Source of the DNA: an uncultured bacterium | Lineage (GTDB): Bacteria; Chloroflexota; UBA5177; JANWHV01 | DNA length: 64,000 bases | Reading direction: 5' to 3' | NCBI GenBank assembly: GCA_963729625.1 | Contig: CAVSOU010000008.1 | Location: 832,001 to 896,000 of the forward strand | In this document: positions 4,276 through 21,599 of the stretch, piece after piece | How the letters are laid out: every line of letters begins with the position of its first letter | How positions within the stretch are numbered: the stretch's first letter is position 1 | Position numbers and translations under genes: made by a program | The notes under the pieces: generated by a model | What the model was told of the DNA's origin: nothing | The model's database searches: none | The model's input: only the letters and a program-made list of their open reading frames with translations

Positions 4276-5490
4276 ATGTCCGCAACAACATCGTCGCCTA
4301 ACGGATCCGCCGATCGTATTGTGCCTGCTCTGCCCACCGGGCTAGGCAGGTTAGGCCTCGCCATCATCGTGCCCTCGGCCTTGATCGATGTTTCGCTGCT
4401 TCGGGCGTGGAACAACGTCAACAACGGCTTCCACGATTCTGACTGGCTTGTGTACTATCACGCTGCCGAGCGGTCGCTTCACGGCAGCGATCCGTATCGT
4501 GTCGGCAGCGAGTTCTTCAATCCTCCCCCCTTTCTGCTGGCGGCGCGATTCGCGCTTTTGTTCGGCTACATGCCGTCCCGGATTCTCTGGTGCATCGCTT
4601 CGTTGCTCATGCTGCTGGCAGCCGGGCGCCTCATGTGCGGCGCGTTGCAGTTGCGGCTCAACGCTACCATTGTGCTCCAGGGCACGGCGCTCATTGCTCT
4701 GTCGACGCCGACGATCCTGCTCATCCCGACATCAGGTAACTCGACCGCGCCCGTCGTGCTGGGTTACGCACTGGCAATCTGGTGTTTCTGCCGCGGCTTG
4801 GACGCCGCCGGCGGTTGCGCCTTGTGCGTTGCCGTGTTGGTCAAGCCCCAGCTTGCGTTCCTGACCCTGCCCCTGCTCCTGTACAAGCGGCGCTGGAAAG
4901 CTTCGGCGGCCTTTGTCGGTTTGGGCTGCGCCGCAATGCTGGGCTCGGTGATCGTACTGGGCACCGACACCGTGCACGGATTCTTCAGAACTCTAGGCAG
5001 CACCGAAAGTGGCGCCGGCTCGGTGAGTATCTGGGTGCGGGATATCCCGGGTCTCCACGCCATGTTCCTTCAGGCATGGCCCGGAAGCGCCGCCGCGGGA
5101 GGAGTCGCGTATCTTCTGAGCGGCTTGCTGATTGTCGCGCTTGCGCGCTACTGGCAAGGCGACTGGCTGCCGTCGAGTCCCCAATTCGCATGCGGATGGG
5201 CCGCGCTGATCCTGGTCGATCTCCTGGCGGTGCCATACGCGCACACTGACGATCTGGTCCTGCTGCTCGTGCCGATCGCGGTCCTGTGCAGCTTTGTGTC
5301 GCGGCCGACCGGCCGTGATGAGCTGGACCGCTGGGTACTGCCCGCTATTGTGGCGCTCTACGTCGCGCCGACGCTGGTAGTCTACATCCGGCTCCATTTC
5401 CCGGCGATAGCGATGCTGTCTGTGCTCGTGCTGTTGTTGAAGCTGGCTCCTCCTTTCCACGCGACTGGCCAGTCCGGTAACGAGAGATGA
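4276..5490 (+). CDS. Glycosyltransferase family 87 (DUF2029) polytopic membrane protein
   Basis: DWLVYY...DPY...FFNPPPF, VKPQL, PYAHTDD motifs; many TM segments. Confidence 0.8.
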   Translation: MSATTSSPNGSADRIVPALPTGLGRLGLAIIVPSALIDVSLLRAWNNVNNGFHDSDWLVYYHAAERSLHGSDPYRVGSEFFNPPPFLLAARFALLFGYMPSRILWCIASLLMLLAAGRLMCGALQLRLNATIVLQGTALIALSTPTILLIPTSGNSTAPVVLGYALAIWCFCRGLDAAGGCALCVAVLVKPQLAFLTLPLLLYKRRWKASAAFVGLGCAAMLGSVIVLGTDTVHGFFRTLGSTESGAGSVSIWVRDIPGLHAMFLQAWPGSAAAGGVAYLLSGLLIVALARYWQGDWLPSSPQFACGWAALILVDLLAVPYAHTDDLVLLLVPIAVLCSFVSRPTGRDELDRWVLPAIVALYVAPTLVVYIRLHFPAIAMLSVLVLLLKLAPPFHATGQSGNER

Positions 5491-5629
5491 TCTGCCCACG
5501 CGCGTGCCGGACAGCGACATGGAGGACGACAAACGGACTCGTATACCGGCACGATGCGAACATCGGCTCGATCGGCGGTCGGCAGCGTCATGTCGTCTGG
5601 ATCGCTCGTCAGTATCACGACAGCAGCCG

Positions 5630-7594
5630 TTAGGTGCCAAAGCGCGCGCGGCTGGCAGCCATCCGTTCTTCGAGCGCGTCTAGCCCGCGCTCGATTCCCG
5701 CGAGACGCTCCAGTTCCGGCGCCTGCTCGCCTTCGAGGCGGCGTCTAGCCTCGAGGGCCGCGTCGATGCTATCGCGCACGTTGGCAATCATCACATCGAT
5801 ACCTCGGGCAATCGAGGTTGAGAAGGCATCGAACGACTTGTGCACTTCCTGCAGCATGTTCGGAAGGGCCTTGGCCGGGAGCTTGTGCAACTCGGCCCGA
5901 GCCGTCTCGGCTATCTTCTCCTTCATGTTCCGTTCCATGGTGTTGCGGCGATTGATGATGCCGATGGTCACGGCACTGGCGACAGTTCCCACCACGAAGA
6001 GGGGGCTGGTGGCCCAGCCGATGGCGGCCAGCAGCACGGTTGCCGCAATCTGCAGCGCGATGACGCGAAGCGCGCTCTGCAGCCAACCGCTGCCGCCCTT
6101 CAACACGACGCCGAAGTCGCCCAGCATGCCGCCACCGTAGGCCAGGATGGTCTCCAGCACCCGCTTCGAATCACCTTCGACCTCGTCGATCTCCGGCAGA
6201 ACTCCGCCGGCAACCTGGATGCGAATGCGCTTCAAGGTGGCATCGATGGTCGCGGCGTCTTCGCCGATGTCCTGAGTCAGTTGTGTCAGCCGCTCCTCTA
6301 TGTCCTGGCCGGTCTGATCCGACCAGGTCTGCAGCTCGCGCTCGATGTACTTGTTGATTCCCTCGGCCATCTCTTTGCGGAGGCGCTGGGGATTCCACTG
6401 CGGGGAGACCTTGAGGGCCATTGCCGCTTCCAGCATGCCGTCTTCCATGGTGGCGACGCGCTGGCGGAAGCTCAGCTCGACAGACTTCTGCACGAGCTGC
6501 TCGCCCGACTCGATTGTGCGAAGAATCCGCCTTCGATGCTCCTGCAGCTGGTCGAATTTCGGCTGCACCTCTTTGACGCGATTCTCGAGCGTGGCCAGGT
6601 CGATTTCCATGGTGGAGCGACGGAAGGACAGTGCCTCGCGCGCGTCTCCGACGGCCTGGGAAGCCTGGGCCAGCGGGCGTTCCAGCGCGACTCGACCGCG
6701 TTCGCGAGCGAGGAAGCGCTCGAGCGACCCTTCGAGAGCCGGCAGCCGCGATTGGTCGAGCGCCTGTGTGTCTCCGGCCAGCCGGGCACGGAGCGCTGGC
6801 TTGGCACTCACGAAGTAGATTCGTTCGCGGCCGTAGTCACGACCATTGACGCGAGTGAGAGGGCCGAGGCGCTGCTCGGCCAGCGCGGTCAGATCCCGCG
6901 CCTCGCGGGCCGGGTCGTCCGCGTCGTCGAGCACGCGGTCGTATTGGTTGATCGCGAAGAAGATATGCGTCAGGCCCTTGCCCAGGATATGCGTGTTGAG
7001 GTATTCGAGCTCGGTCAGGCTGGCGAAGTTCGTGGCGGACAGCACGAAGATCGCCGCGTCCGACTGGCGGACGTAGCCGCTGGTGATCTCCGTGCGTATC
7101 GCCGATTCGTTGAGACCGGGTGAGTCGACGATCTCAACGTTGTTCTCGCACAGCGGCGCCGGGTAGTGGACTTCGACCATCTTATACGTCGCCTGCCGCC
7201 GGTGGTTTTCCTCTTCGTCGGTTGAGAGGCTAAGGGTCTGCGCTAGCTGTTCCACGCTTACTTGCTGAGGCTCGCCGCGGAAGGGGATCAACTCGATAGT
7301 GATTTCGGGACCGTACTTGATCAGTGTGAGCAATGCTGTCGTCGGCGTTACGTTGGCCGGAAGGAGGTTCGCACCCAGGAGCGCATTGATCAGGGTAGAC
7401 TTTCCACGCTTGAATTCACCCAGCACCAGCACCCGGAAGACGCCTGCCTGTACGCGGTCGGCGAGTTCCTGCAGCTGGAGGGCGCCGTCCTCCATGCCCA
7501 GACCACGATTGAGCGTGGCCAGTTCTCGCAGCTCCGAGACAACCTCGCTTCTGACTGCCGCAAAGTCCCGGTAGCCTTCAACCTGTCCGGTCAT
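5630..7594 (-). CDS. Bacterial dynamin-like GTPase (DLP 1)
   Basis: G1 GEFKRGKS, G2 PTT, G3 DSPG, G4 NQYD; long helical stalk; hydrophobic paddle VIALQIAATVLLAAIGW...TIGII. Confidence 0.93.
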   Translation of the reverse strand: MTGQVEGYRDFAAVRSEVVSELRELATLNRGLGMEDGALQLQELADRVQAGVFRVLVLGEFKRGKSTLINALLGANLLPANVTPTTALLTLIKYGPEITIELIPFRGEPQQVSVEQLAQTLSLSTDEEENHRRQATYKMVEVHYPAPLCENNVEIVDSPGLNESAIRTEITSGYVRQSDAAIFVLSATNFASLTELEYLNTHILGKGLTHIFFAINQYDRVLDDADDPAREARDLTALAEQRLGPLTRVNGRDYGRERIYFVSAKPALRARLAGDTQALDQSRLPALEGSLERFLARERGRVALERPLAQASQAVGDAREALSFRRSTMEIDLATLENRVKEVQPKFDQLQEHRRRILRTIESGEQLVQKSVELSFRQRVATMEDGMLEAAMALKVSPQWNPQRLRKEMAEGINKYIERELQTWSDQTGQDIEERLTQLTQDIGEDAATIDATLKRIRIQVAGGVLPEIDEVEGDSKRVLETILAYGGGMLGDFGVVLKGGSGWLQSALRVIALQIAATVLLAAIGWATSPLFVVGTVASAVTIGIINRRNTMERNMKEKIAETARAELHKLPAKALPNMLQEVHKSFDAFSTSIARGIDVMIANVRDSIDAALEARRRLEGEQAPELERLAGIERGLDALEERMAASRARFGT

Positions 7595-7706
7595 TCTCGT
7601 CCTCTCATCGGCGTACGATTCGCCGTTCCTCTGTGTTCGTCATTGATGGAATATTCTGACTGATGCGTACTGCTATTGTTGCACGGGCCTACCACGGCCA
7701 GATGAG

Positions 7707-9350
7707 CTATGGCACACTCCCACCATGCCCGCGCGCAAGATCGGCCAATGCGTTGAGCAACCCCGCGACACGGGCCCGCGATTCCTGGCGCGACGAGTCG
7801 TCCAGCACGATCTCGGTCTGTCGTTTCTGCTCGGGAATGCCGGCGCGGATGCCTTGCGCGAGCTCCGCGCAGGACGCACCGACCTGACCTTCCAGGGCCT
7901 GGCCAGCCTCTATGGTCGCGGCCATGGCGGCCTGCACCAGCGCGGACTTTGTGTTCTGATCATGCATCCCACGAGTGAGCATGCGAAGGATTGGGCCGAT
8001 AGTCATCATGGCGCCTGCAATGACCGGCTTCATGGTCAGCCCGATGACGGTCATGAATGTGGTGAGCAATATGCTGTCTTCGAGGAAGTCGGGCTCGACA
8101 TAGGGATGGAGGCCCGGAGCAGGCGCGCCTGTCGCGAGGCGTTCGGCCTTCCAGTCGGCCACTCCCGCCTCCTGGATGACAGCCTGCATCTTCGCGCGCA
8201 CCTGCACGTCGTGCTCTCGCAGAAACGCGGCGAACTCCTCCTGAATGTAAAACGGAAGGAAGCGGCGGATGTCGCTTATCGCCGCTTCTCCGGTTTCGTC
8301 CTGGAGGCGGTCGCGCAGCGCCAGAGTGAAGGCCTGCAGCTGCAGCTTGAAGTCATTGCATATGGCCTCCACGGCGCGGCACGCGCCTTCCGCCTGCGCG
8401 CGGCGGTCCGTGCCGGCAATGTCCCCGGGCTCGGTCACGGCAGGGATGGGCTCGGAGAGCCTGGCATGGAGCGCGCGCGCGAGGTCCGCTGCCCTCCGCG
8501 CGACAATCGCGCGCAGCACGCCGGCCCTTGTCGCAACGCACTCGCTCAGAAGCGCGCGCAATTCGGGGTAGCCGGACCGGGCCAGCGCACGGTCGTCTCC
8601 GCGCTCTCGAGCGCGCAACGCTCGGCGCGCGGCGTACGGAAGCACATCGGGCGCCTTGCCGAGCGCCGACTCGAACAAGCGCACCACACGATCTCGAACG
8701 TCTGTCCGCTGCTCCTCGTCGTCGAGCGCGTCGTCGCGGTTCAACACAACCACGAGCCGATGCAGGCCCGCCTGCGTTATCCGCCGCTCGAGTAACTGTT
8801 GTTCGCTGGCGCCGAGGGCCTGCGTGCTGTCGAGCACCAGCAGCGCCAGATCGCTCTGCGGCAGGAGCCCGTAGACAGTTTGTGCCAGTCGCGCGGTGTC
8901 CGGATCGTTGAGTCCTGGAGTGTCCACGACGGTGAGCCCGTGGACGTCGTCGCGTGGGATTGCGACGCGCGCGTGACTCACGCTTTCAGCATCGTCGGCA
9001 GTGAGGGCGAGCAGGTCCGATCGCGCGCATTCGATGCTGTTGCCGTCCGCGTATACGAGCTGCACGTGCTCTCTCGCCCCGCTGTACACGTACACGGGGG
9101 GCAACGTCGGCGCGCCCTGGCCCATTGGCAGCCAGGCCTCGCCGATCAGGCTGTTAACCAGCGTTGATTTACCGCGATTGTGTTCACCGATGACTGCGAC
9201 CAGCAGCCGGCGCGAGCGAAGGCGCTCGTCCAGCGCGGCGAGACCGCTGGCAACATCAGTCGCGGAGGCGGCAGTGGCTTCATCGCGCAGCTTGCTCAGG
9301 ATGGCGCGCAGTGCCAGCTCCGAGGTCTGCTGCGAGACTGCGACACTCAC
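7707..9350 (-). CDS. Bacterial dynamin-like GTPase (DLP 2)
   Basis: G1 GEHNRGKS, G3 DTPG, G4 NRDD; hydrophobic paddle ILLTTFMTVIGL...TIGPIL; GTG 9350 overlaps upstream TGA (GTGA). Confidence 0.9.
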   Translation of the reverse strand: MSVAVSQQTSELALRAILSKLRDEATAASATDVASGLAALDERLRSRRLLVAVIGEHNRGKSTLVNSLIGEAWLPMGQGAPTLPPVYVYSGAREHVQLVYADGNSIECARSDLLALTADDAESVSHARVAIPRDDVHGLTVVDTPGLNDPDTARLAQTVYGLLPQSDLALLVLDSTQALGASEQQLLERRITQAGLHRLVVVLNRDDALDDEEQRTDVRDRVVRLFESALGKAPDVLPYAARRALRARERGDDRALARSGYPELRALLSECVATRAGVLRAIVARRAADLARALHARLSEPIPAVTEPGDIAGTDRRAQAEGACRAVEAICNDFKLQLQAFTLALRDRLQDETGEAAISDIRRFLPFYIQEEFAAFLREHDVQVRAKMQAVIQEAGVADWKAERLATGAPAPGLHPYVEPDFLEDSILLTTFMTVIGLTMKPVIAGAMMTIGPILRMLTRGMHDQNTKSALVQAAMAATIEAGQALEGQVGASCAELAQGIRAGIPEQKRQTEIVLDDSSRQESRARVAGLLNALADLARGHGGSVP

Positions 9351-10273
9351 AGTACTTTCACCAGCTGTTCCGTCTCGCGCTCGAGATCGGTTCGCTGCAG
9401 CAGGTTGAGGTCGTCGGCAGGTCGCGGCAATCCGCTGCAAGCGTAGAACAGGTCCGATCGCGCGAACATTCGCAACAACTTGATGCGCTTTACCACCAGC
9501 GGATGCGAGTAAGTCAGCTCCTGGCCTCGGACGAAGAATCCGGATTTGCGGAGATCGTCTCCCTGGGCAAGGTACGCGTCCACGTCGATGTCCTTGGCCA
9601 GGGAAGCAAAACCGAGACGCAGCTTGATCAGCGCCCGGCAACCGACCTCGGTGTCCTGGGCGCAGATCGCGCCTGCGCGGTCGGCCGTGACCTCCGCCCT
9701 ACGCTGCCAGGTGGCCAGCGGCACTTTCGTGGCAAGCATTGGGAACTTGTACGCATCCGGATTGTGCCAGAACTTGTTGAACAACTGGTAGTGCAGGAGG
9801 TACGCGAGGGTGAGATACGTCACGTGCTGGTTGTGGATGTGCCCGCACTCATGCCCAAGCACAAAGCGCAGCTCTTCGGGCGACAGTTGGAGCGCCAGGA
9901 ACGACGTAACGTGGATGAAGGAGTGCTCATCCGTGCCGAACGTGAAAGCGTTGAGCTCCATGCCGCCGGTGCCTGGGCCGATCAGCAATCTGGGCACGGG
10001 GATGGACAGGCGGTCAGCGCAATCGGTGAGCAGCGAATAGATTTCCGGGAATTGACGCGGCGTAACCTGAACTGAGTCATGCAGGAACGTCCCGAACGCC
10101 ACACGCACGTAGGCGTTGATGATCGCGTCGACGCTACCTTGCAGGCCAGCGCGGCTGAGCAAACGCTGTACGGTGGAGTCAGTGGGATGCGCGTAGAGCA
10201 CGGGCTCTTCCGCATTCTTGCGATTCTCGTGTTCCTTGCGCGACTTGACAAAATCCGCGAAACTCGTAGCCAT
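9347..10273 (-). CDS. M48 family zinc metallopeptidase (soluble)
   Basis: LNAFTFG, ELRFVLGHECGH (HExxH), RRAEVTADRAG, YSHPLVVKRI; GGAGG RBS before ATG 10273. Confidence 0.92.
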   Translation of the reverse strand: MATSFADFVKSRKEHENRKNAEEPVLYAHPTDSTVQRLLSRAGLQGSVDAIINAYVRVAFGTFLHDSVQVTPRQFPEIYSLLTDCADRLSIPVPRLLIGPGTGGMELNAFTFGTDEHSFIHVTSFLALQLSPEELRFVLGHECGHIHNQHVTYLTLAYLLHYQLFNKFWHNPDAYKFPMLATKVPLATWQRRAEVTADRAGAICAQDTEVGCRALIKLRLGFASLAKDIDVDAYLAQGDDLRKSGFFVRGQELTYSHPLVVKRIKLLRMFARSDLFYACSGLPRPADDLNLLQRTDLERETEQLVKVL

Positions 10274-10300
10274 GGGCCGCCTCCTGGTAGCTGTACCAGA

Positions 10301-10306
10301 AGTATA
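10301..10306 (-). promoter_or_regulatory. Putative -10 element for the M48-dynamin operon
   Basis: TATACT on the minus strand ~28 nt upstream of the ATG; the same hexamer precedes several genes in the window. Confidence 0.45.
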
Positions 10307-10457
10307 CCCAGGGGCCAAATACGCGCATATTGGCGCAGCGTCGGCGCCGTGCCGGTTCTCGGACGCGCATGATGCGCGCGACCCGCGCAGGATGTCGCGG
10401 CGCGTGTTCGTGACCCGGCTCCGCGATCGTGGTGGATTCATGCAGTAGGGAGAAAGT

Positions 10458-11282
10458 ATGCCTCTCAGCCGGTCCCAGATTCGATGCGTCCTGACAATTG
10501 CCGGATCCGACAGTGGTGGGGGCGCTGGCCTGCAGGCCGATCTGAAGACCCTCCTCAGCCACCGCGTGCATGGAGCCGTGGCCGTGACGTGCATAACGGC
10601 GCAGAACACGATCGGTGTCAGCGCCATCGAACGGCTGTCGTCCGGCATCATTATCGCACAGATACGGGCCGTGCTGGACGATCTGGCTCCCGAGGCCGCC
10701 AAAACCGGCTTTGTGGCCGGTATTGAGGCAATCGGCGCGATCGAGATAGTCGCGGACGCCCTGCCTCCGTTGGTCGTGGATCCGGTGTGCGTCAACAAGC
10801 ATGGCGCCCAGATTCTGGATGACTCGGTCGTGGCTGCGATCAAGCGTGTGCTGCTCCCGCGCGCGATTCTTGTCACGCCGAATGTCGCCGAGGCCAGGGT
10901 GCTTACCGGGCTGGTGGTCAACGATGAGCGCGACATGGAGGCAGCTGCCGACGAATTACTGGCGCAGGGTGCGCACGCCGTACTGATCAAAGGCGGCCGT
11001 ATCGGCAGCGATCGAAGCCCCGATCTGCTCGCCATGGAGACGGGTACTCGCGAATGGCTCGACACGCAGCGTGTGGCCACTACCGCGGTCTTGGGCGCGG
11101 GCGATACACTCGCCGCGGCAATCGCCGCGCGCATCGCCTGGGGCGCTTCGCTGGTTGAAGCAGTTCGCCTGGGCAAGGCATACGTTACCGCGTGCCTGAG
11201 GGTAGCTCTTGAGATCGGCCGCGGGCAGGGACCGGTTGGGCATGTGCCCGCGAACGGCGAGCGCCGCGCGACATATTGCTAA
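10458..11282 (+). CDS. thiD: Hydroxymethylpyrimidine/phosphomethylpyrimidine kinase
   Basis: LTIAGSDSGGGAGLQADLK, TAQNT, VVDPV, TPNVAEA, GAGDTL, GRGQGPV. Confidence 0.95.
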   Translation: MPLSRSQIRCVLTIAGSDSGGGAGLQADLKTLLSHRVHGAVAVTCITAQNTIGVSAIERLSSGIIIAQIRAVLDDLAPEAAKTGFVAGIEAIGAIEIVADALPPLVVDPVCVNKHGAQILDDSVVAAIKRVLLPRAILVTPNVAEARVLTGLVVNDERDMEAAADELLAQGAHAVLIKGGRIGSDRSPDLLAMETGTREWLDTQRVATTAVLGAGDTLAAAIAARIAWGASLVEAVRLGKAYVTACLRVALEIGRGQGPVGHVPANGERRATYC

Positions 11283-11317: not shown

Positions 11318-11323
11318 GTGATT

Positions 11324-11335
11324 GAACATACGTTC
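11324..11335. promoter_or_regulatory. LexA operator (SOS box, GAAC-N4-GTTC)
   Basis: GAACatacGTTC just downstream of the -10, upstream of lexA. Confidence 0.88.
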
Positions 11336-11357
11336 TATAGCCCGTGGAGGATGGGCG

Positions 11358-12020
11358 ATGCCACGACATACAGGGGAAATCATGCGTCAGCGCATCGAGC
11401 AGGCGATCGCTGCGCTAACCGCGGAACATGGCAGGCCGCCGACCAATCGCGAGATTGGTGCTCACGTGGGCGGGGGTACGGCAAAGTCCACTGGGCATAT
11501 CGACTATCATCTCCGGCTCATGCGTGAGCAGGGGATAATCGGCCATGAACCGCGAAAGAGCCGAGGGATTACGCTGTTGCGGCACGCACCAGTAGCGGCG
11601 GCAACTCCGATTCCATTTCCGCTCACGCGCGTTCGCTTGGTCGGGCAGATCGCGGCAGGCACCGCGATCGAAGCATCGGAGATCCCCGATGACTACGTCG
11701 ATCTTGCCGACGGATTCTCAGGCGATCAAGATATCTTTGCTCTTCGTGTCAAAGGGACATCGATGATCGAGGACCACATCGACGACGGTGACATCGTGAT
11801 TGTGCGGCGGCAGCAGACGGCCAACAACGGCGATACCGTCGTCGCTCTTCTGACCGACGCGACGAACGAGCGAGGAGAGGCGACCCTCAAGCGGTTCTAC
11901 CGGGACATCGGCGGCAAGGTCCGATTGCAGCCGCGTAACCCTGACCTTGCGCCAATCGTCAAAGACGCGAAAGACGTCCAGATTCAGGGCAAAGTGATCG
12001 CGGTATACCGGCAGGTGTAG
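11358..12020 (+). CDS. lexA: SOS repressor LexA
   Basis: PPTNREIG wHTH, IAAG cleavage site, GTSM catalytic Ser, TLKR catalytic Lys; GGAGG RBS. Confidence 0.96.
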   Translation: MPRHTGEIMRQRIEQAIAALTAEHGRPPTNREIGAHVGGGTAKSTGHIDYHLRLMREQGIIGHEPRKSRGITLLRHAPVAAATPIPFPLTRVRLVGQIAAGTAIEASEIPDDYVDLADGFSGDQDIFALRVKGTSMIEDHIDDGDIVIVRRQQTANNGDTVVALLTDATNERGEATLKRFYRDIGGKVRLQPRNPDLAPIVKDAKDVQIQGKVIAVYRQV

Positions 12021-12025
12021 CGCGG

Positions 12026-12961
12026 CTATTCTGTCCGCTGGTCGACGAGGTAGACACTCGATGCGGTCTGTTTTGCCTGTTTCTTCAGCTGGGCAGCAAT
12101 ATCGCTGATCTCGTACTCCGTCTTGAGCACGCGCTGCCGGTTGGTTACGACGCCGATCGATACAGTCACGATGGGAAAATCCTGACGCACTCCCTGTCGA
12201 TCCATGGTTGTGACGTAGCCACTTGCGCGATCTTCAGGATCGTAGAGGGCCGGCACCTGCGAATCGAATTGACTGATTATTGCCCCGCAGACCTTGCGCA
12301 TTTCGTCGTCGCTGCCCCGCAGCATGCCGACGAAATCGTCTCCCCCGACATGGCCAACAAAAGCGCTCTCGTGAGCTGTCAACACCACGGTCTTCAAGAT
12401 TCCGGCGAGCAGCTTGATCAGATCGTTTCCTCGCACGAATCCATATGCGTCGTTGAACGACTTGAAGTTGTCGATGTCGATGTACAGGACATAGAGGTCG
12501 CGCCGCTCGTCCTGCAAGCTCTGCCGGAGAACACGCTCGATCTGCGTGTTTCCTGGCAGGCCCGTGAGCTCCGACAGGAGATGCTCCTCGGCGTGCCGTA
12601 GCTGTGTGCGCACCCGGGCCAACAGTTCCTGGATGGCAAAGGGCTTTCCGACGTAATCATCCGCGCCAAGAGCAAGGCCGGTCACCCGATGCTCGGTCTC
12701 ATCAAGCGCCGAGAGGAAGATTATCGGGATGGAGGCGGAGCGCGGTTGTTCTTTCAATGCACGCAATACGTCCCAGCCACGCATGTCTGGAAGCATCACG
12801 TCGAGAATGATCAAGTGCGGCTGTTCGCGAATAGCGTTCCGTATTCCTTCGGTGCCGTCGGATGCCAGAATCACACTGTAGCCGTCGAGGTCCAGAGCAG
12901 CCTGCACCAGTTCACGAATGTTCGGATCGTCGTCAATACAGAGTATCGTGCTAGTCTGCAT
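12026..12961 (-). CDS. Response regulator receiver + GGDEF dinucleotide cyclase
   Basis: REC ([20 protein letters not shown]) + [25 protein letters not shown]. Confidence 0.92.
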
Positions 12962-15548
12962 CGCTCGGATCGGACACACTGTCACCTTCTTGATCTGGGC
13001 CGTCTAGGCCTGATCCATCTTCCTCGGCAACGATCATCTCGCTATCTTGATCATCGTCCACATTGCCGTTTTCTGAAGGTGCAATAATGTTTCCCTGGGG
13101 AGACGCGTCTCCGTTGTCGTTTTGCTGCAGCATGCACGCCATCGAGACCACGGTGTCGCCCTCGTTCAGGCGCATCACTCTCACACCTTGCGTGTTCCTG
13201 CCGGTAGGGCGAATCGTGCTGACGGGCTGGCGGATCACCTGCCCACCGGCTGACATCAGGACCATTTCCATGTCGGATGACACTATTGCGGCCGCGACGA
13301 TGGAACCGACCTTGTCGACGTTCCTTATGGTGTACACGCCTTGCCCCTTGCGTCCCTGCTGGCGATATTCGTCGACGGGCGTGCGCTTGCCGATGCCGAG
13401 CTCCGTTACCACGAGCAAGTCGTGGTCGAGCCTCGCGAGACCCATAGCGACAAGTTTGTCTCCACCGCGCAGCTTGATACCTCGGACTCCGGCGGCGGTG
13501 CGGCCCATTGAGCGGACCTGTTCCTGGGCGAAGCGGATTGCGCGTCCGTCCGAGGTTACCAGCATGATGTCCTCATCACCCTGGCCGGCCTCGACCCACT
13601 CCAGATCGTCCTCCGGATCGACAGTTATCGCAGCGAGCCCGCTGCGACGGATATTCATGAAATTCTCCAGAGGCGTGCGCTTGATCACACCGCGTCGCGT
13701 GGCCAAAATCAGGAATCCCTCTCGCAAGCCGTCTTTAGCCTGGACGAGGACTGTGGCGACCCCTTCGCCCGGTTCGAGAGCAATGAGGTTATTAACCGGC
13801 ACGCCCCGGGCCTGCCGTCCGGTTGACGGCAGCTCGTACACCTTGAGCTGATAGGCGCGGCCGCGGGTGGTGAAGAAAAGCAGCGAATCGTGCGTATTGC
13901 AGGCGAGAAGCCGGCTGACCTCGTCCGCTTCGCGAGCAACCATCCCCACAATACCCTTGCCGCCGCGCCGCTGTGGGCGATAGGTGCTGGCGAGCATCCG
14001 CTTGGTGTAACCACGGGATGTCATGGTGACGATGACGTCCTCGGGAGCGACCAGGTCGTCGAGTGTCATCTCGCTGGCCTCTTCCTGAACGATGACGGTG
14101 CGGCGGGCGTCGCCGTATTTCTCTCGCAGATCGGTCAGCTCGGAGACGATGATGGAGTCGATGCGCGCGGCATCGGCCAGGATGGCGCGGTACTCCGCGA
14201 TCTTTGTCTCCACTTCCGCCAATTCGTCGCGAATCTTCTGCTGTTCGAGCGCCGCCAGACGACTGAGCTGGAGGGCGAGAATAGCCTTTGACTGCGCTTC
14301 GGTCAGGTCGAAGCGCTCCTGCAGCACGTGGCCGGCTTCCTCGCTGTTTCGCGCGGCGCGAATCGTAGCGATAACCGCGTCCAGCTGGTTGAGGGCCTTC
14401 GCCAACCCTTCGAGGATGTGAGCGCGGGCTTCGGCCTTTCGCAGATCGAACTCAGTGCGTCGCCGCACGACCTCGCGCCGATGCTTGACATAATAGCGGA
14501 GGGTCATCTCGAGCGGCAGGACGCGCGGCTGGTTGTCGACAAGGGCAAGCATATTGATGGAGATGCTGTCCTGTAACTGCGTGTGCTTGAACAACTGGTT
14601 CAGCACGTGCTGCGTATGCGCGTCGCGCTTGAGCTCGATCATCAGGCGCATACCCTGGCGGTCAGACTCGTCGCGAAGGTCCGCTATGCCCTCGATGTCG
14701 CGCTGCTGCACGAGCTCGGCGATGCGCTCCTGCAGCTTCGCCTTATTGACCTGGAAAGGAAGCTCGGTGACGATGATCGCCGTTCTTCCGGTGCGCGATT
14801 CCTCGAGATGGTGCTTGCAGCGCAGGACGATCCGCCCGCGCCCGGTGGCGTACGCGTTGGTGATCCCCTCCTGCCCAAGGATGATGCCGCCGGTCGGGAA
14901 ATCGGGGCCTTTGACGATTGCCGCAAGCTCGGCGACCGTTGCCGACGGATGCGCGATGAGGTAGATGATCCCATCGACCAGCTCGCGCAGATTGTGCGGC
15001 GGAATGTTGGTTGCCATGCCGACTGCGATGCCGTTTGTGCCGTTGAGCAGCAGCTGGGGAAGCCGCGCAGGAAGTACGGACGGCTCTTGCTCATTCCCGT
15101 CGTAGTTCGGGCCGAAATCGACCGTATCTCGATCGAGATCGACCAGCATCTCGTCGGCGATCGCCGCCATACGCGCTTCGGTGTAGCGCATTGCAGCCGG
15201 CGCGTCGCCGTCGACGGATCCGAAGTTACCTTGCCCGTCGATCAGCGGGTAGCGCATGCTGAAATCCTGCGCCAAGCGCACCATGCTGTCGTACACGGCA
15301 ACGTCGCCGTGTGGGTGGTACTTGCCAAGCACCTCGCCGACCACGGTGGCGCTTTTCCGATAGTGTGAGGTCGAGCGGAGGCCGAGCTGACTCATCGCGT
15401 ACAGAATGCGGCGGTGAACGGGTTTCAAGCCGTCGCGAACATCCGGCAAAGCGCGAGATACAATCACGCTCATCGCATAATCGAGGTACGCTTCGCGCAT
15501 CTCGGTTTCGATATGTACCTCGCGAACGGTACCAAAGTCCGCTACCAT
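12951..15548 (-). CDS. gyrA: DNA gyrase subunit A
   Basis: [29 protein letters not shown] catalytic Tyr, GyrA-box QRRGGKG, CTD repeats. Confidence 0.98.
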
Positions 15549-16329: not shown

Positions 16330-16462
16330 GCCGCCCTCGTCGCACAGGAGTTATCGGCGCTCAAGGCTCCCACTGGGGTTGGCGCGCTCGTAACAGTACT
16401 GGCAAGCGTGGTGGTCGGCGTCGCGCCGACGGTGCTGGCTGGGGTCCGTTGTGTTTGCGCTA
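16330..16462 (-). pseudogene. Frameshifted remnant of a linker plus the start of a second C-terminal module of the 16460-21118 gene
   Basis: -1 frame past the stop reads TPASTVGATPTTTLASTVTSAPTPVGALSADNS, matching paralogue linker/module start PTPSGTLFADNF. Confidence 0.55.
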
Positions 16463-19400
16463 CCCGCCGGTCACGGCCACGCTGTCGTATTCAACGGCGG
16501 TCAACGTGTGGAAGCCGACCATACCGCTTGTCAGACTCACGTCCTTGATGGTCTTGAGCACCGTGCTGTTGATCGATGCCGTGATCGTGGAGCCGCTGAA
16601 GGTAAGCCCGAGCGTATACCAGGCGCCGGTCACCGGGGTGAACGAGCCGGAGCCAATCTGTGAAAACGCGCCGGCCACCCGCTTTGCCAGCTGCCACTTC
16701 GTGCCGTCCCGGAGCAGCAACATGTACGTGTCATTGAAGTCGTGCCAGCGACCAAGAATGCCGAACGCAGCGGTGCCGCCGGGCGCTTTGACGGCGATGG
16801 ACACCATGTAGTTCGTCCATGCGGGACTTCCGGCCGTAAGTTCTGCCGCGGGAGACACGGTGCGCGTCTCCGCCGCCACATGTGATTGATCCTGCGTGAC
16901 GGTCCATGTGCCGCCGGTGGCGGCCCAGTTGGCCGGTGCGGCGCCGAGTTGATCGGCTTCAAAGTCGTCCGAGAACAAGGTGCCGCCGGTTATTGGGGTA
17001 TAGGTCGCGGTCGGCGTGGCAGGCGCGACCGTCGGAGTAGGTGTGCCGGTACGCTCGGGAGACGCCGACAGCGTCGGCGAGTTGGTGGCGCTCGGCACTG
17101 CCGTGAACGTCGCGGAAGCGGTCGCGGTGCTCGTAGTGCTCGGCGCAGCCGTGAGTGTGGCAGAAGTGGTCGCAGTGCTTGTGGCGCTTGACACTGCCGT
17201 GAAAGTGGCGGAAACCGTGGCGGTAGCGGCAGGCGTCCCGGTGGGGGAAGCTGTCGTCGTGCTCGTAGCGGTCGAGGTCATAGTCGCCGTTGGCGTCGTG
17301 CTAGCGGTGCCCGTCGCCGAAGCGCTGGGCGTCGCCGTCACCGTGCCGGTATTTGGCAGCACGCTCACCGCAGTGAAATTGACGGTGCTCGATCCGATCA
17401 AGTTATGGGCCGTTACCGCGAGGCCCGCGAGCACGGGGCCGGCAAGACCGGTCAGGGGCACGGTCGAGCCTGGAACAAGGGTCCAGGCGACTCCGTCCTG
17501 CGACGTGAAGGCGCTGAAGGTCGTGCCCGAGCGGCTGACCTGCAAATACGCCGGTGCGCTGCCGGAAACGGTCGCCAGCGCGAGCGCCTTCACGCCCTGA
17601 GGCGAGCGGTATTGGACGTTAATGCCATTGCTGGGAGTGACCAGCAGGTCATAGAATGCGGCGCCCGGTCCAGTCCCTCCTCGCAGCATCACACCAGCCT
17701 TGGCCCACGGATCGCTGTTCGTCTGGCTCACCACCTGAGCCTGGACATTGCCGTCCGCGCTCAGGCTCTGATAGTCGAAGCGTAGCTGGTCGCCGGTTCC
17801 CCAGATATCGCCGCCCCCGCCCGTCACCGTCCAGTTGCCATTCGCGACGGCGTCGCTGCCCGGCACGGTCGGATTGCCGATGTCGGCGCAAGCCCAGCCG
17901 GCCGGGCAGCCTCCCGGCGCAGTCCCCGTCGGCGTCACGGTAGACGTCTGCGTGGGAGTCGGCGTTGCAGTCGTGACCGTGGTGCTGGTCGACACGCTCA
18001 CTGCATGGAACACGACAGTGCTTGAGCTGCTCGTATTGTGCCCCGTCACTGCGAGACCGGCCAGCAGGGTGCCGGACATGTCCGGCAGGCTAAGCGCAGA
18101 GCCCGCGACTGCCGTCCACGTTGCACCGTCGGCCGACGTGTAGGCATTGAAGGTCGTGCCCGTGCGGGCGATCATCAGGCAGGTAGGCGCCACTCCGCTG
18201 ATCAGGGACTGCTGGACGGCGCTTCCGCTGGTGAAGCCTCGGTACTGCACGGTGATGCCGTTGCCGGGCGTGACGACTGCATCGTAGTACGCCGCGAAGG
18301 CTTGCGGGCCACTTCGCAGCATCAGTCCGGCCTTCGCCCACGGGCTACTGTTCGACTGCGAGGTGACGCAAGCGCTGATGCCGCCGTCGCCGCCGAGCGA
18401 CTGCCAATCGAAGTGGAACTGGTCTCCAGTGCCCCAGATGTCGCCCCCGCCTCCCTGAACCGTCCAGGATCCCGTGGCCTGAGCGTCACTGCCTTGCACC
18501 GTCGGCCCGCCAATGTCGGCGCAGGACCAGCCCGAGGGGCAGAGTAGCGGCGCGGTGGCATTGATCGATACGGTGTCGAATTGGGCGCTGCCGACAACAC
18601 CGGCGTTGTGCGACGAGACCGCAAGGCCGACCAACAGCGTGCCGAGAAGGTTAGTCATGACCTCGCTCGTGCCGAGAGACGTCCAGGTGATACCGTCTGA
18701 TGATGTGTAGGACGTGAAGGCCGAGCCAATACGCGAGACTTTCAGATACACCGGCGCCGCGCCGGCTACCCTGGCAAGGCCCAGGGTATTGAAGGACGCT
18801 GCCGCACGGTACTCCGTGGTGATACCGTTAGCGGGCGTGGCGAGAAGAGCGTAGGACGGGGCATTCGCCGCGGTGTTCTGCCGGAACATGATGCCGGCCT
18901 CGGCGTTACCGTTGGTCTTTGTCTGATTACTGACGCGCGCGGTAATCGTGCCGTCGCCCGTCAAGCTCTGCCAGACGTAATGGAATTGGTCGGACTGGTT
19001 CGCGATGAGGTTGCCAGCGCCTTGAACCGTCCAGGTTCCGCCACTGAGCGACTGTCCACCGGTAAGTGAAGGATTCCCGACATCGCCGCAGGACCAGCCG
19101 CTCGGGCACGAACCCGTGGGAGCTGCCACGGGTGCCATGGCCGGGGTGCCTACTGTGACCTGGCTGAGTTGCGCCGTGCCGGCGGTGCCGTTGGCACCCG
19201 AGGCGGCAGCCAAACCGGCGAGAATAGAGGCCGGCATGGCGATGGCCACGGTGGTGCCGGGAATCAGCGTATACGTGATACCGTCTGTCGAGGCGGACGC
19301 CTGGAATTGGTCGCCGACCCGCTGCACGGCTATGTACGAGGGAATCGACACCGTGACCGAGCGCACAACCGCTACTACCGCGGGTGTAACGCGGTAGGCA

Positions 19401-21118
19401 ACCGCCAACGACCCCGAACCGGTCAAGTACGCGGCGTAGAACGGCGAAACGGGATCGCCGGTTTGCCGGATGATCAATCCCTCCTGTGCGTGAGTCGAGC
19501 CGGAAGGTAGGGTGCCGGCGAGGGCGGTCAGCTGCACGTCACCGCCCATCGGTTGAGTCAACAGACGGAGCGAATCTCCGGCTCCGCCGAGCCCGGCACC
19601 GCCGGAGCTGATGGTCCAGGAGCCCGACGAAACCACCTCCGATCCGGCTGGAGATGGCGTGCCGACGTCCTGGCATGTCCATCCACTGGGGCACGAAGGA
19701 TCGGGGGGCGGTCCGGAGGCGCTCGAGGTAGGGAGGCCGAATGCATAAACATTTCCGTCCGTGCCGCCGAAAATGATCTGCCCGTTCGCTACAGCAGGCG
19801 CGCCGTACAGTGGCGCGGCCGTGGTGTAGCTGAACAGCCTTGTGCCGCTTGAGGCATCGAGGACTTCCAGCGTCGATCCCTCCCCGTCGACGATGAAACC
19901 GTTAGCGTAGGCGATGGCAGGAATAACAGGAGAAGCATTTGGATGCTGCCATTCAACTGCACCGTTTCGCGGGTTGATAGCGCTCACAGACCCGCCAAAA
20001 CCCTGGCCCCCGATCACTGCGTTGCCCGTGGCCTGGTAGATGGCGCCATTGGCGAAAGCCGCATTAGAGACTGTCCCGTCGCCGGCAGCCGGGTTTGCTC
20101 CGCCCGGATCGAGCCGCACCTGCCAGGCGGGTCCGGCCGCCAGGTTGATGGCGGTCGTCGAGCTTGCAGGCTCGCCGAAGGCGTAGAGTACGCCGTTCTT
20201 GTTCATGGCAATAACGAGCCGGTTTCCCGCACCGTCGGTGACAATCGTGGGCCCCGTGCCGAAATCGGCGTCGCTCAGCGACTGATTCTCAGGAATCTGC
20301 CAGTACGACTCTATGGAAAGATCGGACGCGGAGAGCGCAACCACGGCCTGCGACATAGTCTGATCCGCGGAAGCCTTTGTGCCAGTTGAGACGTAGACTG
20401 TACCGGTCGCGGCGTCGTATGCAGGGGAGGTCCAGACGCCTCCACCGACTTCGCCGCTGGGAACGAAGGTGGCTGTCGCCACGATGGCGTGCTGGGTGAG
20501 GTCGACCTTCAGGAGCTGCCCCTGGACGAGCGGGCAATCACCGAAGCTCGCAGTGCCCACGTACGCGAAGTTGCCCACGATCAAAGGGCTCGCCCAGTTG
20601 TAGTGGCCACCTGTCGCGCTCCCATCGCCGGTGTTGACCGTCCAGAGAATGGCGCCCGTGCCGGCGTCGAGAGCGTAGAAATAGGTGTTGGTTCCGTGCT
20701 GATAGTCCCCGCCTCCGACGTACGCTACGCCGTTCACGACTGCGGCTCCGGAACTGACGCCGGCGGAAGGCGGATTGCAGGCATACGGGCCCGTGATTCC
20801 CAGAAACGTCTTCCACTTCAGGGCGCCGGTAGCGGCGTCCAGCGCGTATTCGTAGCCGTCCCAGGACCCGATATACACTGTGCCGGCCACGACGGCCGGT
20901 TCGGCGGCAATAATGCCGCCCGTCTTGAATGTCCAGCTCTTGACCAACGTGTCAGCGTTGTTCGTCGACAACGTGCTCTCGTCTACGCTGGCGGCGCTTC
21001 GACCGGCGTCGTGAAGGTACGTTGGCCAGTCGCCGGCGGTGGTTAGGAGAGACACAACCAGGAGCACCACCACTGCGCGGGCACGCGCCAACGAGACAGC
21101 AACACCTGGACGCCTCAT
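16460..21118 (-). CDS. Large secreted protein: PQQ-type beta-propeller + 4 ConA/DUF1349-like repeats + Thr/Pro linker + C-terminal lectin-like module
   Basis: Signal peptide after GGAGG RBS; DWPTYLHD, YALDAATG..KW repeats; four CPxGWxCxDxG-initiated repeats; TLFSDDFE module. Confidence 0.88.
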   Translation of the reverse strand: MRRPGVAVSLARARAVVVLLVVSLLTTAGDWPTYLHDAGRSAASVDESTLSTNNADTLVKSWTFKTGGIIAAEPAVVAGTVYIGSWDGYEYALDAATGALKWKTFLGITGPYACNPPSAGVSSGAAVVNGVAYVGGGDYQHGTNTYFYALDAGTGAILWTVNTGDGSATGGHYNWASPLIVGNFAYVGTASFGDCPLVQGQLLKVDLTQHAIVATATFVPSGEVGGGVWTSPAYDAATGTVYVSTGTKASADQTMSQAVVALSASDLSIESYWQIPENQSLSDADFGTGPTIVTDGAGNRLVIAMNKNGVLYAFGEPASSTTAINLAAGPAWQVRLDPGGANPAAGDGTVSNAAFANGAIYQATGNAVIGGQGFGGSVSAINPRNGAVEWQHPNASPVIPAIAYANGFIVDGEGSTLEVLDASSGTRLFSYTTAAPLYGAPAVANGQIIFGGTDGNVYAFGLPTSSASGPPPDPSCPSGWTCQDVGTPSPAGSEVVSSGSWTISSGGAGLGGAGDSLRLLTQPMGGDVQLTALAGTLPSGSTHAQEGLIIRQTGDPVSPFYAAYLTGSGSLAVAYRVTPAVVAVVRSVTVSIPSYIAVQRVGDQFQASASTDGITYTLIPGTTVAIAMPASILAGLAAASGANGTAGTAQLSQVTVGTPAMAPVAAPTGSCPSGWSCGDVGNPSLTGGQSLSGGTWTVQGAGNLIANQSDQFHYVWQSLTGDGTITARVSNQTKTNGNAEAGIMFRQNTAANAPSYALLATPANGITTEYRAAASFNTLGLARVAGAAPVYLKVSRIGSAFTSYTSSDGITWTSLGTSEVMTNLLGTLLVGLAVSSHNAGVVGSAQFDTVSINATAPLLCPSGWSCADIGGPTVQGSDAQATGSWTVQGGGGDIWGTGDQFHFDWQSLGGDGGISACVTSQSNSSPWAKAGLMLRSGPQAFAAYYDAVVTPGNGITVQYRGFTSGSAVQQSLISGVAPTCLMIARTGTTFNAYTSADGATWTAVAGSALSLPDMSGTLLAGLAVTGHNTSSSSTVVFHAVSVSTSTTVTTATPTPTQTSTVTPTGTAPGGCPAGWACADIGNPTVPGSDAVANGNWTVTGGGGDIWGTGDQLRFDYQSLSADGNVQAQVVSQTNSDPWAKAGVMLRGGTGPGAAFYDLLVTPSNGINVQYRSPQGVKALALATVSGSAPAYLQVSRSGTTFSAFTSQDGVAWTLVPGSTVPLTGLAGPVLAGLAVTAHNLIGSSTVNFTAVSVLPNTGTVTATPSASATGTASTTPTATMTSTATSTTTASPTGTPAATATVSATFTAVSSATSTATTSATLTAAPSTTSTATASATFTAVPSATNSPTLSASPERTGTPTPTVAPATPTATYTPITGGTLFSDDFEADQLGAAPANWAATGGTWTVTQDQSHVAAETRTVSPAAELTAGSPAWTNYMVSIAVKAPGGTAAFGILGRWHDFNDTYMLLLRDGTKWQLAKRVAGAFSQIGSGSFTPVTGAWYTLGLTFSGSTITASINSTVLKTIKDVSLTSGMVGFHTLTAVEYDSVAVTGG
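17360..19695 (-). repeat. Four tandem ~185-aa intragenic domain repeats
   Basis: Each begins CP(S/A)GWxCxD(V/I)G and contains (A/E)G(L/I/V)(M/I)xR, (T/A/Q)DG(I/A/V)(T/A)(W/Y)T and GLA motifs; boundaries approximate. Confidence 0.85.
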
Positions 21119-21599
21119 ACTGAACCTCCGAATTGTGGTGCAGCGGGAACCACCGCGAAGAATGCGACGAGCGCGGTAGTTCGGCTCATGCACAGCAGGA
21201 AAACATAATGGGAGAACGAAAAAGGACCAGGAAAGCACACTGAAGCAGTTCGCCGTTCTGATGCACTGCGACGGCAAACCTCCTAAGATCGTACGTTTAC
21301 ACACGGCCGAAAGGAATACCTGCCTGGCACACAGTGCGCGGCCAGTCGGATACTGAATCGCACTCAGCAGGATTGTGCCCGTACACGTGGATTGCGATTG
21401 GCGCCATCGGGCCGGCAGATAGAGGCATTCAGGCCCAGACATTTGGGTCATTGATGAGCGGGCTTCGCGCCACTACTATGGCATCGTCGCAGGGACCTGG
21501 ATGTCGTCAGTGCGATGACTGTCAGCCGAGTTGTCGGACATGAAACAAGGCGGTAGCTGAGCGCGCCGCGGCATAACCGCTCACTCTATTTGAAGTCGG

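Follow-up and report, generated by a model that had tools for sequence, protein, structure and literature searches.

An M48-family zinc metallopeptidase encoded directly ahead of two dynamin-like GTPases was identified in a 64,000-nucleotide stretch of DNA (the window, meaning the whole stretch that was analysed) from a Chloroflexota metagenome-assembled genome (87% complete, 5% contamination), and the gene neighbourhoods of its relatives support the view that this peptidase is a dedicated, conserved partner of dynamin-like genes. The view is held because a dynamin-like gene adjoins the peptidase gene in nearly every related locus inspected, because the two co-occur in an even draw of Myxococcota genomes, and because a control set of paralogous peptidases has no dynamin nearby. 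The three genes lie co-oriented on the minus strand of the window (5630-10273), in the order M48 peptidase, DLP2 and DLP1 (DLP, dynamin-like protein), where an earlier note, made from the sequence alone, had placed them. The observation made in that note is confirmed, and its interpretation, a peptidase functionally tied to dynamins, is partly supported in that the link is real and conserved.

Genomic link between the M48 peptidase and dynamin-like genes

A species-level genome collection scanned with an alignment of the M48 protein gave matches in at least 570 places, and the best 80 loci were inspected; these came from Chloroflexota, Myxococcota, Bacillota, a cyanobacterium and a few mislabelled bins. 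A dynamin-like gene on the same strand was found downstream of the peptidase gene in 77 of the 80 loci, while the contig ended in the other 3, and this adjacency holds at 30-44% peptidase identity across four phyla. The gap between the M48 gene and the next gene is at most 150 bases in 73 of the 79 loci with a callable downstream open reading frame (ORF), and 36 of the 79 show a 4-base overlap between the M48 stop and the start that follows. The same overlap is present in the window, where the TGA stop of the M48 gene and the GTG start of DLP2 share the bases GTGA (9347..9350, minus strand, read from the sequence), which suggests translational coupling, as had been proposed in the earlier note. 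In distant Chloroflexota, 4-base overlaps link all three genes.

Full-length M48 orthologues were found in all 4 other genomes of the window's genus and in 8 genomes of other families in its class, 11 of the 80 inspected loci being shared with these 12 relatives. A dynamin-like gene lies directly behind the peptidase gene in 11 of the 12, and the contig of the twelfth ends 150 bases past the peptidase.

Since the best 80 loci are a biased sample, an even draw of 201 Myxococcota genomes was searched with both the M48 profile and a profile of the partner dynamin. The M48 profile (E ≤1e-60) was matched in 39 of the 201 genomes, always as a single copy (39/39), and the dynamin profile gave 40 strong and 2 weak matches. 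The dynamin was present in 39/39 genomes with the peptidase, and the peptidase in 39/40 genomes with a strong dynamin match. Both genes adjoin on one contig and strand in 37 of the 39 carriers, the 2 exceptions being split over contigs. The genes are thus tightly coupled and co-inherited, and the link of M48 to dynamins in other genomes, for which the earlier note had proposed a neighbourhood survey, is borne out.

The coupling is also specific. Among 151 cyanobacterial genomes, a related M48 family was detected in 69 at E ≤1e-30, mostly at about 1e-45 to 1e-51, and true orthologues were present in 4, at about 1e-94 to 1e-109. Two dynamins follow the peptidase gene in both orthologue loci with enough flank (2/2), whereas no dynamin was found within about 6 kb of the paralogues in any of 12 loci examined (0/12; L121-L132). 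Set against these dynamin-free paralogues, the orthologues carry an additional helix at the N-terminus, their zinc motif is HECGH and not HELGH, and a conserved C-terminal helix motif takes the place of GGWRNW; we take the orthologue-specific termini as candidate contact sites. The paralogues themselves are about 290 amino acids long, carry HELGH and the C-terminal GGWRNW, and reach up to three copies per genome. No shared partner gene was found beside them, their neighbours being varied, with an HSR1-type GTPase once; an FMN-dependent dehydrogenase adjoins the paralogue in 2 of 9 loci scanned.

A similar picture is given by the window's own genome, which has five dynamin genes, and only the DLP2/DLP1 pair has an M48 gene beside it. 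The second dynamin pair (C11:488-492 kb, L133) lies between glycosyltransferase and parA/parB-like genes, and the lone dynamin (C7:582-584 kb, L134) lies beside a DDE transposase and molybdopterin genes, both with no M48 gene.

Operons can hold unrelated genes, and the peptidase might merely share one with the dynamins while performing general cytosolic or membrane proteolysis unrelated to them. We consider this very improbable: the adjacency is kept across four phyla at the low peptidase identities given above, the co-occurrence in Myxococcota is nearly mutual, and neither the closest M48 paralogues nor the other dynamins of the window's genome have the partner.

The peptidase and the two dynamin-like proteins

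The peptidase (P0001; 9347..10273, minus strand) has 308 amino acids and is soluble. Pfam Peptidase_M48 (PF01435) matches its residues 73-268 at 83.8 bits, against a cut-off of 20.3, and the HECGH motif is found at residues 141-145 (bases 9839-9853). The third zinc ligand is Glu194 (bases 9692-9694) in RRAEVTADR, an RxxExxAD-like motif which we take to be the third-ligand site of M48 enzymes. The residues H141, E142, H145 and E194 are invariant in 80/80 aligned relatives, and the catalytic site is intact. The N-terminus is hydrophilic, with no signal peptide, and no membrane helix was detected, the highest 19-residue Kyte-Doolittle mean being 1.12 and no segment reaching the mark of 1.6. The description in the earlier note of a soluble zincin with HECGH, a downstream glutamate in RRAE and no membrane segment therefore stands.

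The AlphaFold2 model of the peptidase, built on 80 relatives, has a predicted local distance difference test score (pLDDT) of 90 and a predicted template modelling score of 0.89. Its closest solved folds by VIA-align are all M48 enzymes, namely ZMPSTE24 (Z 11.8, root-mean-square deviation 4.6, 186 aligned), the Geobacter peptidase 3c37 (Z 10.9), Ste24p (Z 10.2), BepA (Z 9.5) and an HtpX domain (Z 8.2). Foldseek matched the model to ZMPSTE24 at E 2.1e-4, and the HtpX homologue 3cqb was matched by sequence at E 7.3e-9. In the ESM Atlas, the closest clusters were all plain M48 families, with nothing new. Assignment to HtpX proper was considered and rejected, as every NCBIfam HtpX equivalog was missed (best 42.9 bits against 355, covering residues 67-160 only). 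The protein is thus a member of family M48 and not of HtpX. It has the same HExxH...E catalytic core and fold as HtpX, Ste24 and BepA; unlike them, it has no membrane helices or signal peptide, and it has N- and C-terminal helices of its own and a dynamin partner.

DLP2 (P0002; 7707..9350, minus strand) is a dynamin-like GTPase of 547 amino acids with a GTG start. It matches Dynamin_N at 61.5 bits (cut-off 27) and has G1 as GEHNRGKS (residues 55-62, bases 9165-9188), G3 as DTPG, and NRDD at the expected place of G4. A hydrophobic paddle-like stretch is found at residues 427-445 (bases 8016-8072). The AlphaFold2 model has a pLDDT of 80.5, with a low-confidence stretch at residues 401-440, and over its full length it was matched by Foldseek to the bacterial dynamin-like protein (BDLP) 2j69 (E 1.2e-16), IniA 6j72 (E 1.4e-16) and the Campylobacter jejuni DLP 5owv (E 2.6e-12). 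The helical domain PF21808 had no match in DLP2, and the full-length alignments of the model to BDLP and IniA (E about 1e-16) stand in its place. The closest relatives of DLP2 are the single dynamins encoded behind M48 in Myxococcota.

DLP1 (P0003; 5630..7594, minus strand) is a BDLP1-like GTPase of 654 amino acids with an ATG start. Dynamin_N is matched at 90.4 bits (cut-off 27) and PF21808 at 96.5 bits (cut-off 28.3); G1 is GEFKRGKS (residues 59-66, bases 7397-7420), G3 is DSPG and NQYD is at the place of G4. By phmmer, residues 41-646 align to the Nostoc BDLP 2j68 at E 1.3e-58, and a 44-residue hydrophobic hairpin occupies residues 505-548 (bases 5951-6082). DLP2 and DLP1 thus belong to the bacterial dynamin-like family (BDLP / mitofusin class). 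Both keep the G1, G3 and G4 motifs and a paddle, as the earlier note had stated, with NRDD and NQYD presumably being the G4 motifs, and since the hydrophobic stretches are at the expected place, both proteins may bind membrane through them.

The two dynamin genes are separated by a spacer of 112 bases (7595..7706, minus strand), which has the purine-rich stretch GAGAGGACGAG just 5′ of the DLP1 ATG and in which a simple scan found no terminator-like site.

Forms of the module and comparison with known dynamin systems

Across lineages the constant first gene is M48, and the downstream content occurs in three forms. In Form I, found in Myxococcota and allies, the peptidase is followed by one active dynamin of about 600 amino acids with GEFNHGKS and DTPG. 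Form II, found in the window's genus and in the cyanobacterial orthologue loci, has a dynamin of the Form I type (DLP2 here) and then a BDLP1-like one (DLP1 here, with GEFKRGKS and DSPG). In Form III, found in other Chloroflexota of the class, Bacillota and Symbiobacteriaceae, the gene behind the peptidase encodes a dynamin-like protein with a degenerate GTPase domain, in which G1 is GxxGSGR or absent and DxxG is missing while the helical body and a hydrophobic stretch are kept. This pseudo-GTPase is followed by a BDLP1-like active dynamin and often by a third dynamin; examples with degenerate G1 and no DxxG are L017:3731-5458, L019:4804-6543, L028:7927-9684, L044:7901-9658 and L084:7924-9576, among others. 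The pseudo-GTPase partners have 11-19% identity to DLP2, which is a different kind of protein from the product of the equivalent gene in most other Chloroflexota. What stays constant across phyla is a soluble M48 with a dynamin-like protein encoded directly behind it, to which a second, BDLP1-like dynamin is added here. The dynamin pair that the earlier note had taken as the module is therefore present in the window but is not constant, Myxococcota having M48 and one dynamin. The peptidase and dynamin genes are not contiguous in one locus (L120), where an alpha/beta hydrolase gene and a WG-repeat gene come between them.

A maximum-likelihood tree of 80 peptidases separates the group with pseudo-GTPase partners from that with Myxococcota-type partners (support 98/90). 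The window's genus falls within the latter group, on a long branch that makes its placement unsafe. On this tree, 3 to 4 changes of partner label were counted, compared with 15.6 to 19.5 in shuffles, which indicates clustering only, as kin share labels. Taken together, the peptidase and its partner travel as a unit, and the finding of a different version of the module in the window's genus than in its relatives of the same class suggests either transfer or an old paralogy.

In a library of 1.84 billion representative proteins, the M48 profile found 1340 proteins at E ≤1e-30, the paralogue family included. No M48 relative was found among 72,556 plasmids (tblastn, E ≤1e-20) or among 50,697 phage records (tblastn, E ≤1e-10). 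A cultured carrier within the 80 loci is Murimonas intestini DSM 26524 (locus L084).

To our knowledge, almost no dedicated non-dynamin partners of bacterial DLPs have been described, and the cellular roles of these proteins are poorly understood. Among the closest known systems are Nostoc punctiforme BDLP1 and the tandem cyanobacterial DLPs: DLP1 has a full-length match to BDLP1, with the GTPase domain, the PF21808 neck/trunk and the paddle, as well as a second dynamin alongside. A survey of cyanobacterial dynamins describes the contexts KGK, Tandem A/B, HSR1 and DnaK chaperone, with no peptidase in its text (PMC5827413); unlike in those described contexts, M48 leads the operon here. In a supplementary sheet of the same 2018 work, 1 row of about 125, for Cal7507_5390 of Calothrix sp. 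PCC 7507, gives the neighbour as 'peptidase M48 Ste24p' (PMC5827413).

The Campylobacter jejuni DLP1/DLP2 genes likewise adjoin as a pair and share their operon with a third gene that is not a dynamin, and DLP2 of the window matches 5owv_C by sequence at E 1.6e-8. The third gene there is described as encoding an HcpA-like beta-lactamase and comes after the pair (PMC6104087), whereas here it encodes M48, is placed first and overlaps DLP2. Eleos/LeoABC also has two consecutive dynamin-like genes, and partial LeoA/LeoBC model matches of modest score were obtained here. However, it is without a peptidase, while a conserved M48 leads the operon in all loci examined here and the Myxococcota form has one dynamin only. 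Because of the conserved extra gene, and because no defence-island setting was seen in 16 loci, the module is probably not Eleos/LeoABC.

A further likeness is to mitochondrial OMA1-OPA1, in which an M48-family zinc peptidase acts with a dynamin-like membrane-remodelling GTPase under membrane stress (PMC11885689). In mitochondria the peptidase is itself embedded in the inner membrane and OPA1 is anchored through its N-terminus, whereas here M48 is soluble and the dynamins have a paddle, so that the likeness lies in the co-occurrence of the two families.

No published description of an M48-dynamin association was found in full-text literature searches, most subscription journals and bioRxiv supplements lying outside their scope, and this agrees with the earlier note, which knew of no characterised dynamin pair with a dedicated coupled peptidase. 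One paper on a dynamin and HtpX was considered as a precedent and set aside, as it concerns DgcE turnover in E. coli with no linked peptidase (PMC6510439). The families themselves are known; a bacterial dynamin system with an obligate M48 partner is, as far as this literature goes, previously undescribed. The near-mutual occurrence of M48 and dynamin gives the field a testable partner, and proteolysis as a read-out for when and where dynamins act. The module is also a simple bacterial system for studying protease-dynamin logic of the OMA1-OPA1 kind, and cultured carriers exist in Murimonas intestini DSM 26524 and, by the published table row, in Calothrix sp. PCC 7507.

Possible roles and surroundings of the operon

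Characterised M48 enzymes (HtpX, Ste24, OMA1 and BepA) all act on membrane or envelope proteins. Perhaps the partner dynamin recruits the dedicated M48 to the membrane, or switches it on there, so that membrane-proximal proteins are cut; we give this reading, which we prefer, a probability of about 0.4. The peptidase, with its intact catalytic site, has no membrane anchor of its own and would need a carrier. The partner dynamin would bind the cytoplasmic membrane through its hydrophobic paddle, most likely in a GTP-dependent manner and as a heterotypic pair with DLP1, and would bring M48 to the cytoplasmic face of a stressed or remodelling membrane, or activate it there. M48 may then cleave protein substrates close to the membrane, as one element of a membrane-stress, repair and quality-control response. 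Retention of the paddle even by the pseudo-GTPase partners fits a role as carrier or adaptor. We infer the binding of M48 to the dynamin, its membrane recruitment, its substrates and its trigger from these features of the genes.

Direct contact was examined by complex prediction, one of the checks proposed in the earlier note. M48 with DLP2 scored 0.32, compared with 0.00 for the best of 3 controls, and this was graded as weak support; the prediction runs had at least 22% contact agreement, with a partner pLDDT of at least 66. Among solved complexes, 116 of 157 reach the mark used for such scores, as do 2 of 215 mismatched pairs; at 0.60 or under, it is reached by 18 of the 157 and by both passing mismatches. 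The score thus stands above the controls, but the support is weak and no interface was reported. A HMMER search of the 1.84-billion-protein library found M48 and Dynamin_N in one chain in a single protein of 906 amino acids (P0006), a singleton on one metagenome contig, at which the junction resembles read-through of the overlapping stop and start; the fusion may be a sequencing error and is weak evidence. Another singleton on one contig, P0084 (559 amino acids), joins Pkinase to an M48 of this clade and is weak evidence too. A word-index search for longer, fused relatives of M48 found none at E ≤1e-10. Other members of the wider M48 family have zinc-ribbon, TPR, TerB/DUF533 or DnaJ-like additions.

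Several points weigh against recruitment or activation of M48 by its dynamin, the weak complex score and the doubtful fusion just described being two of them. The spread of the module is patchy, as it was found in 14 of 301 Chloroflexota (13 of them in the window's class), 39 of 201 Myxococcota, 4 of 151 Cyanobacteriota and just 1 of 300 Clostridia, namely the centre genome, a pattern as easily explained by an accessory role, including defence, as by a stress module. The loci inspected were the best 80 of at least 570 related ones. As there are three kinds of partner (the active Myxococcota type, the pseudo-GTPase, and either of these accompanied or not by more dynamins), a single shared mechanism is an assumption. 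Finally, no substrate or stress signal is named by the sequence.

The same adjacency, co-occurrence and overlap would be expected if the dynamin were the substrate, with M48 cleaving its partner or DLP1 so as to switch the assembly, mature it or take it apart, as a bacterial counterpart of OMA1-OPA1. OMA1, itself of the M48 family, cleaves OPA1 on mitochondrial stress (PMC11885689; PMC2806285), the complex score is compatible with direct contact, and residues 401-440 of DLP2, probably flexible and just before the paddle, could be accessible to a protease. However, no cleavage site can be named, a partner that varies from an active GTPase to a pseudo-GTPase is awkward for a conserved site, and the best partial NCBIfam matches of M48 are to HtpX. 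We find cleavage of the dynamin doubtful. Its stress-triggered form, in which the dedicated M48 would cut its own dynamin-like partner on membrane stress and so switch assembly states, as a prokaryotic counterpart of OMA1-OPA1, seems to us unlikely; if it were true, the M48-dynamin pairing would be ancient or repeatedly invented and not a eukaryotic innovation.

The patchy spread across phyla, together with the possible horizontal transfer suggested by a Myxococcota-type module in the window's genus and the other type in its class relatives, also speaks for the rival reading of the module as an anti-phage or other conflict system related to Eleos and LeoA/LeoBC, with M48 as an effector or regulator that, for example, delays lysis or kills the infected cell. 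Protection against phages by two-gene dynamin systems and by B. subtilis DynA is described in a preprint (10.1101/2022.05.11.491447), and DLP2 and DLP1 match the PADLOC models of LeoA (56.8 and 86.3 bits) and LeoBC (41.9 and 63.0 bits), for which PADLOC gives no cut-off; dynamins of all three types in related loci also reach scores of this level. In one cyanobacterial genome, a TIR-domain gene (Pfam) lies directly upstream of the M48-dynamin-dynamin operon (L119:4993-5856), and one Symbiobacteriaceae locus has a Fic gene. On the other hand, in 15 diverse loci and the window, a small sample, the peptidase had no PADLOC match (0/16) and no complete known system was found beside the module. The PADLOC matches of the neighbours were generic: Ser/Thr kinases in 4 loci, the Fic gene in 1, a weak viperin-like radical SAM protein in 1, and a weak methyltransferase. 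The neighbours in the window itself (listed below) are no more suggestive of defence, no relative was found on plasmids or phages, and the module is single-copy in Myxococcota carriers. Moreover, the published system, as given in the preprint, has two genes with no peptidase and lies beside known defence systems in 60% of cases (10.1101/2022.05.11.491447), and nothing like that frequency was seen here. The defence-island setting that the earlier note had proposed to look for was thus not found in these 16 loci, and a defence role is, in our judgement, unlikely; if it were true, a protease-bearing relative would be added to the dynamin defence systems. We therefore keep to recruitment or activation of M48 by its dynamin as the preferred, though tentative, reading.

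In the 15 diverse loci and the window, the genes around the module differ between loci and are mostly housekeeping or variable ones. A Ser/Thr kinase was considered as a core component and rejected, as a kinase gene is present at any position in 11 of the 80 loci, and 4 of the 80 have one that is co-oriented and no more than 3 kb upstream. In the window, the operon has as neighbours thiD, lexA, a response regulator with a GGDEF domain, gyrA, a GT87 glycosyltransferase and ATPases of a peptide ATP-binding cassette (ABC) transporter. By the ORF layout, a spacer of 184 bases (10274..10457) separates the M48 start from the divergent thiD-like gene, and the promoter of the operon is presumed to lie inside it. 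A sigma-70 consensus scan found no site within this spacer, and a promoter and terminator scan of 5300-10600 gave consensus matches only within coding sequence, which are uninformative. A look-up of RNA runs that cover the locus returned none.

As lexA is two genes away, SOS control of the operon was considered and rejected: no GAAC-N4-GTTC box (≤1 mismatch) was found in the spacer upstream of M48, and the pattern occurs 14 times in the window against a mean of 20 in shuffles, with no excess. A perfect palindrome, GAACATACGTTC, which we take to be a LexA-box-like motif, is found at 11324-11335, at the very start of the ORF 11322-12020 that encodes the LexA DNA-binding and S24 peptidase domains. 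The true lexA start is probably further downstream, with the palindrome as its own operator.

The GGDEF response regulator is encoded at 12026-12985, and a GGDEF gene also precedes the module in L079. The E. coli diguanylate cyclase DgcE is activated by the dynamin-like RdcA/RdcB system (PMC6510439); with two cases only, the presence of GGDEF genes near the module may be a coincidence. Downstream of gyrA, a very long ORF of 1663 amino acids was found on the minus strand (16460-21451).

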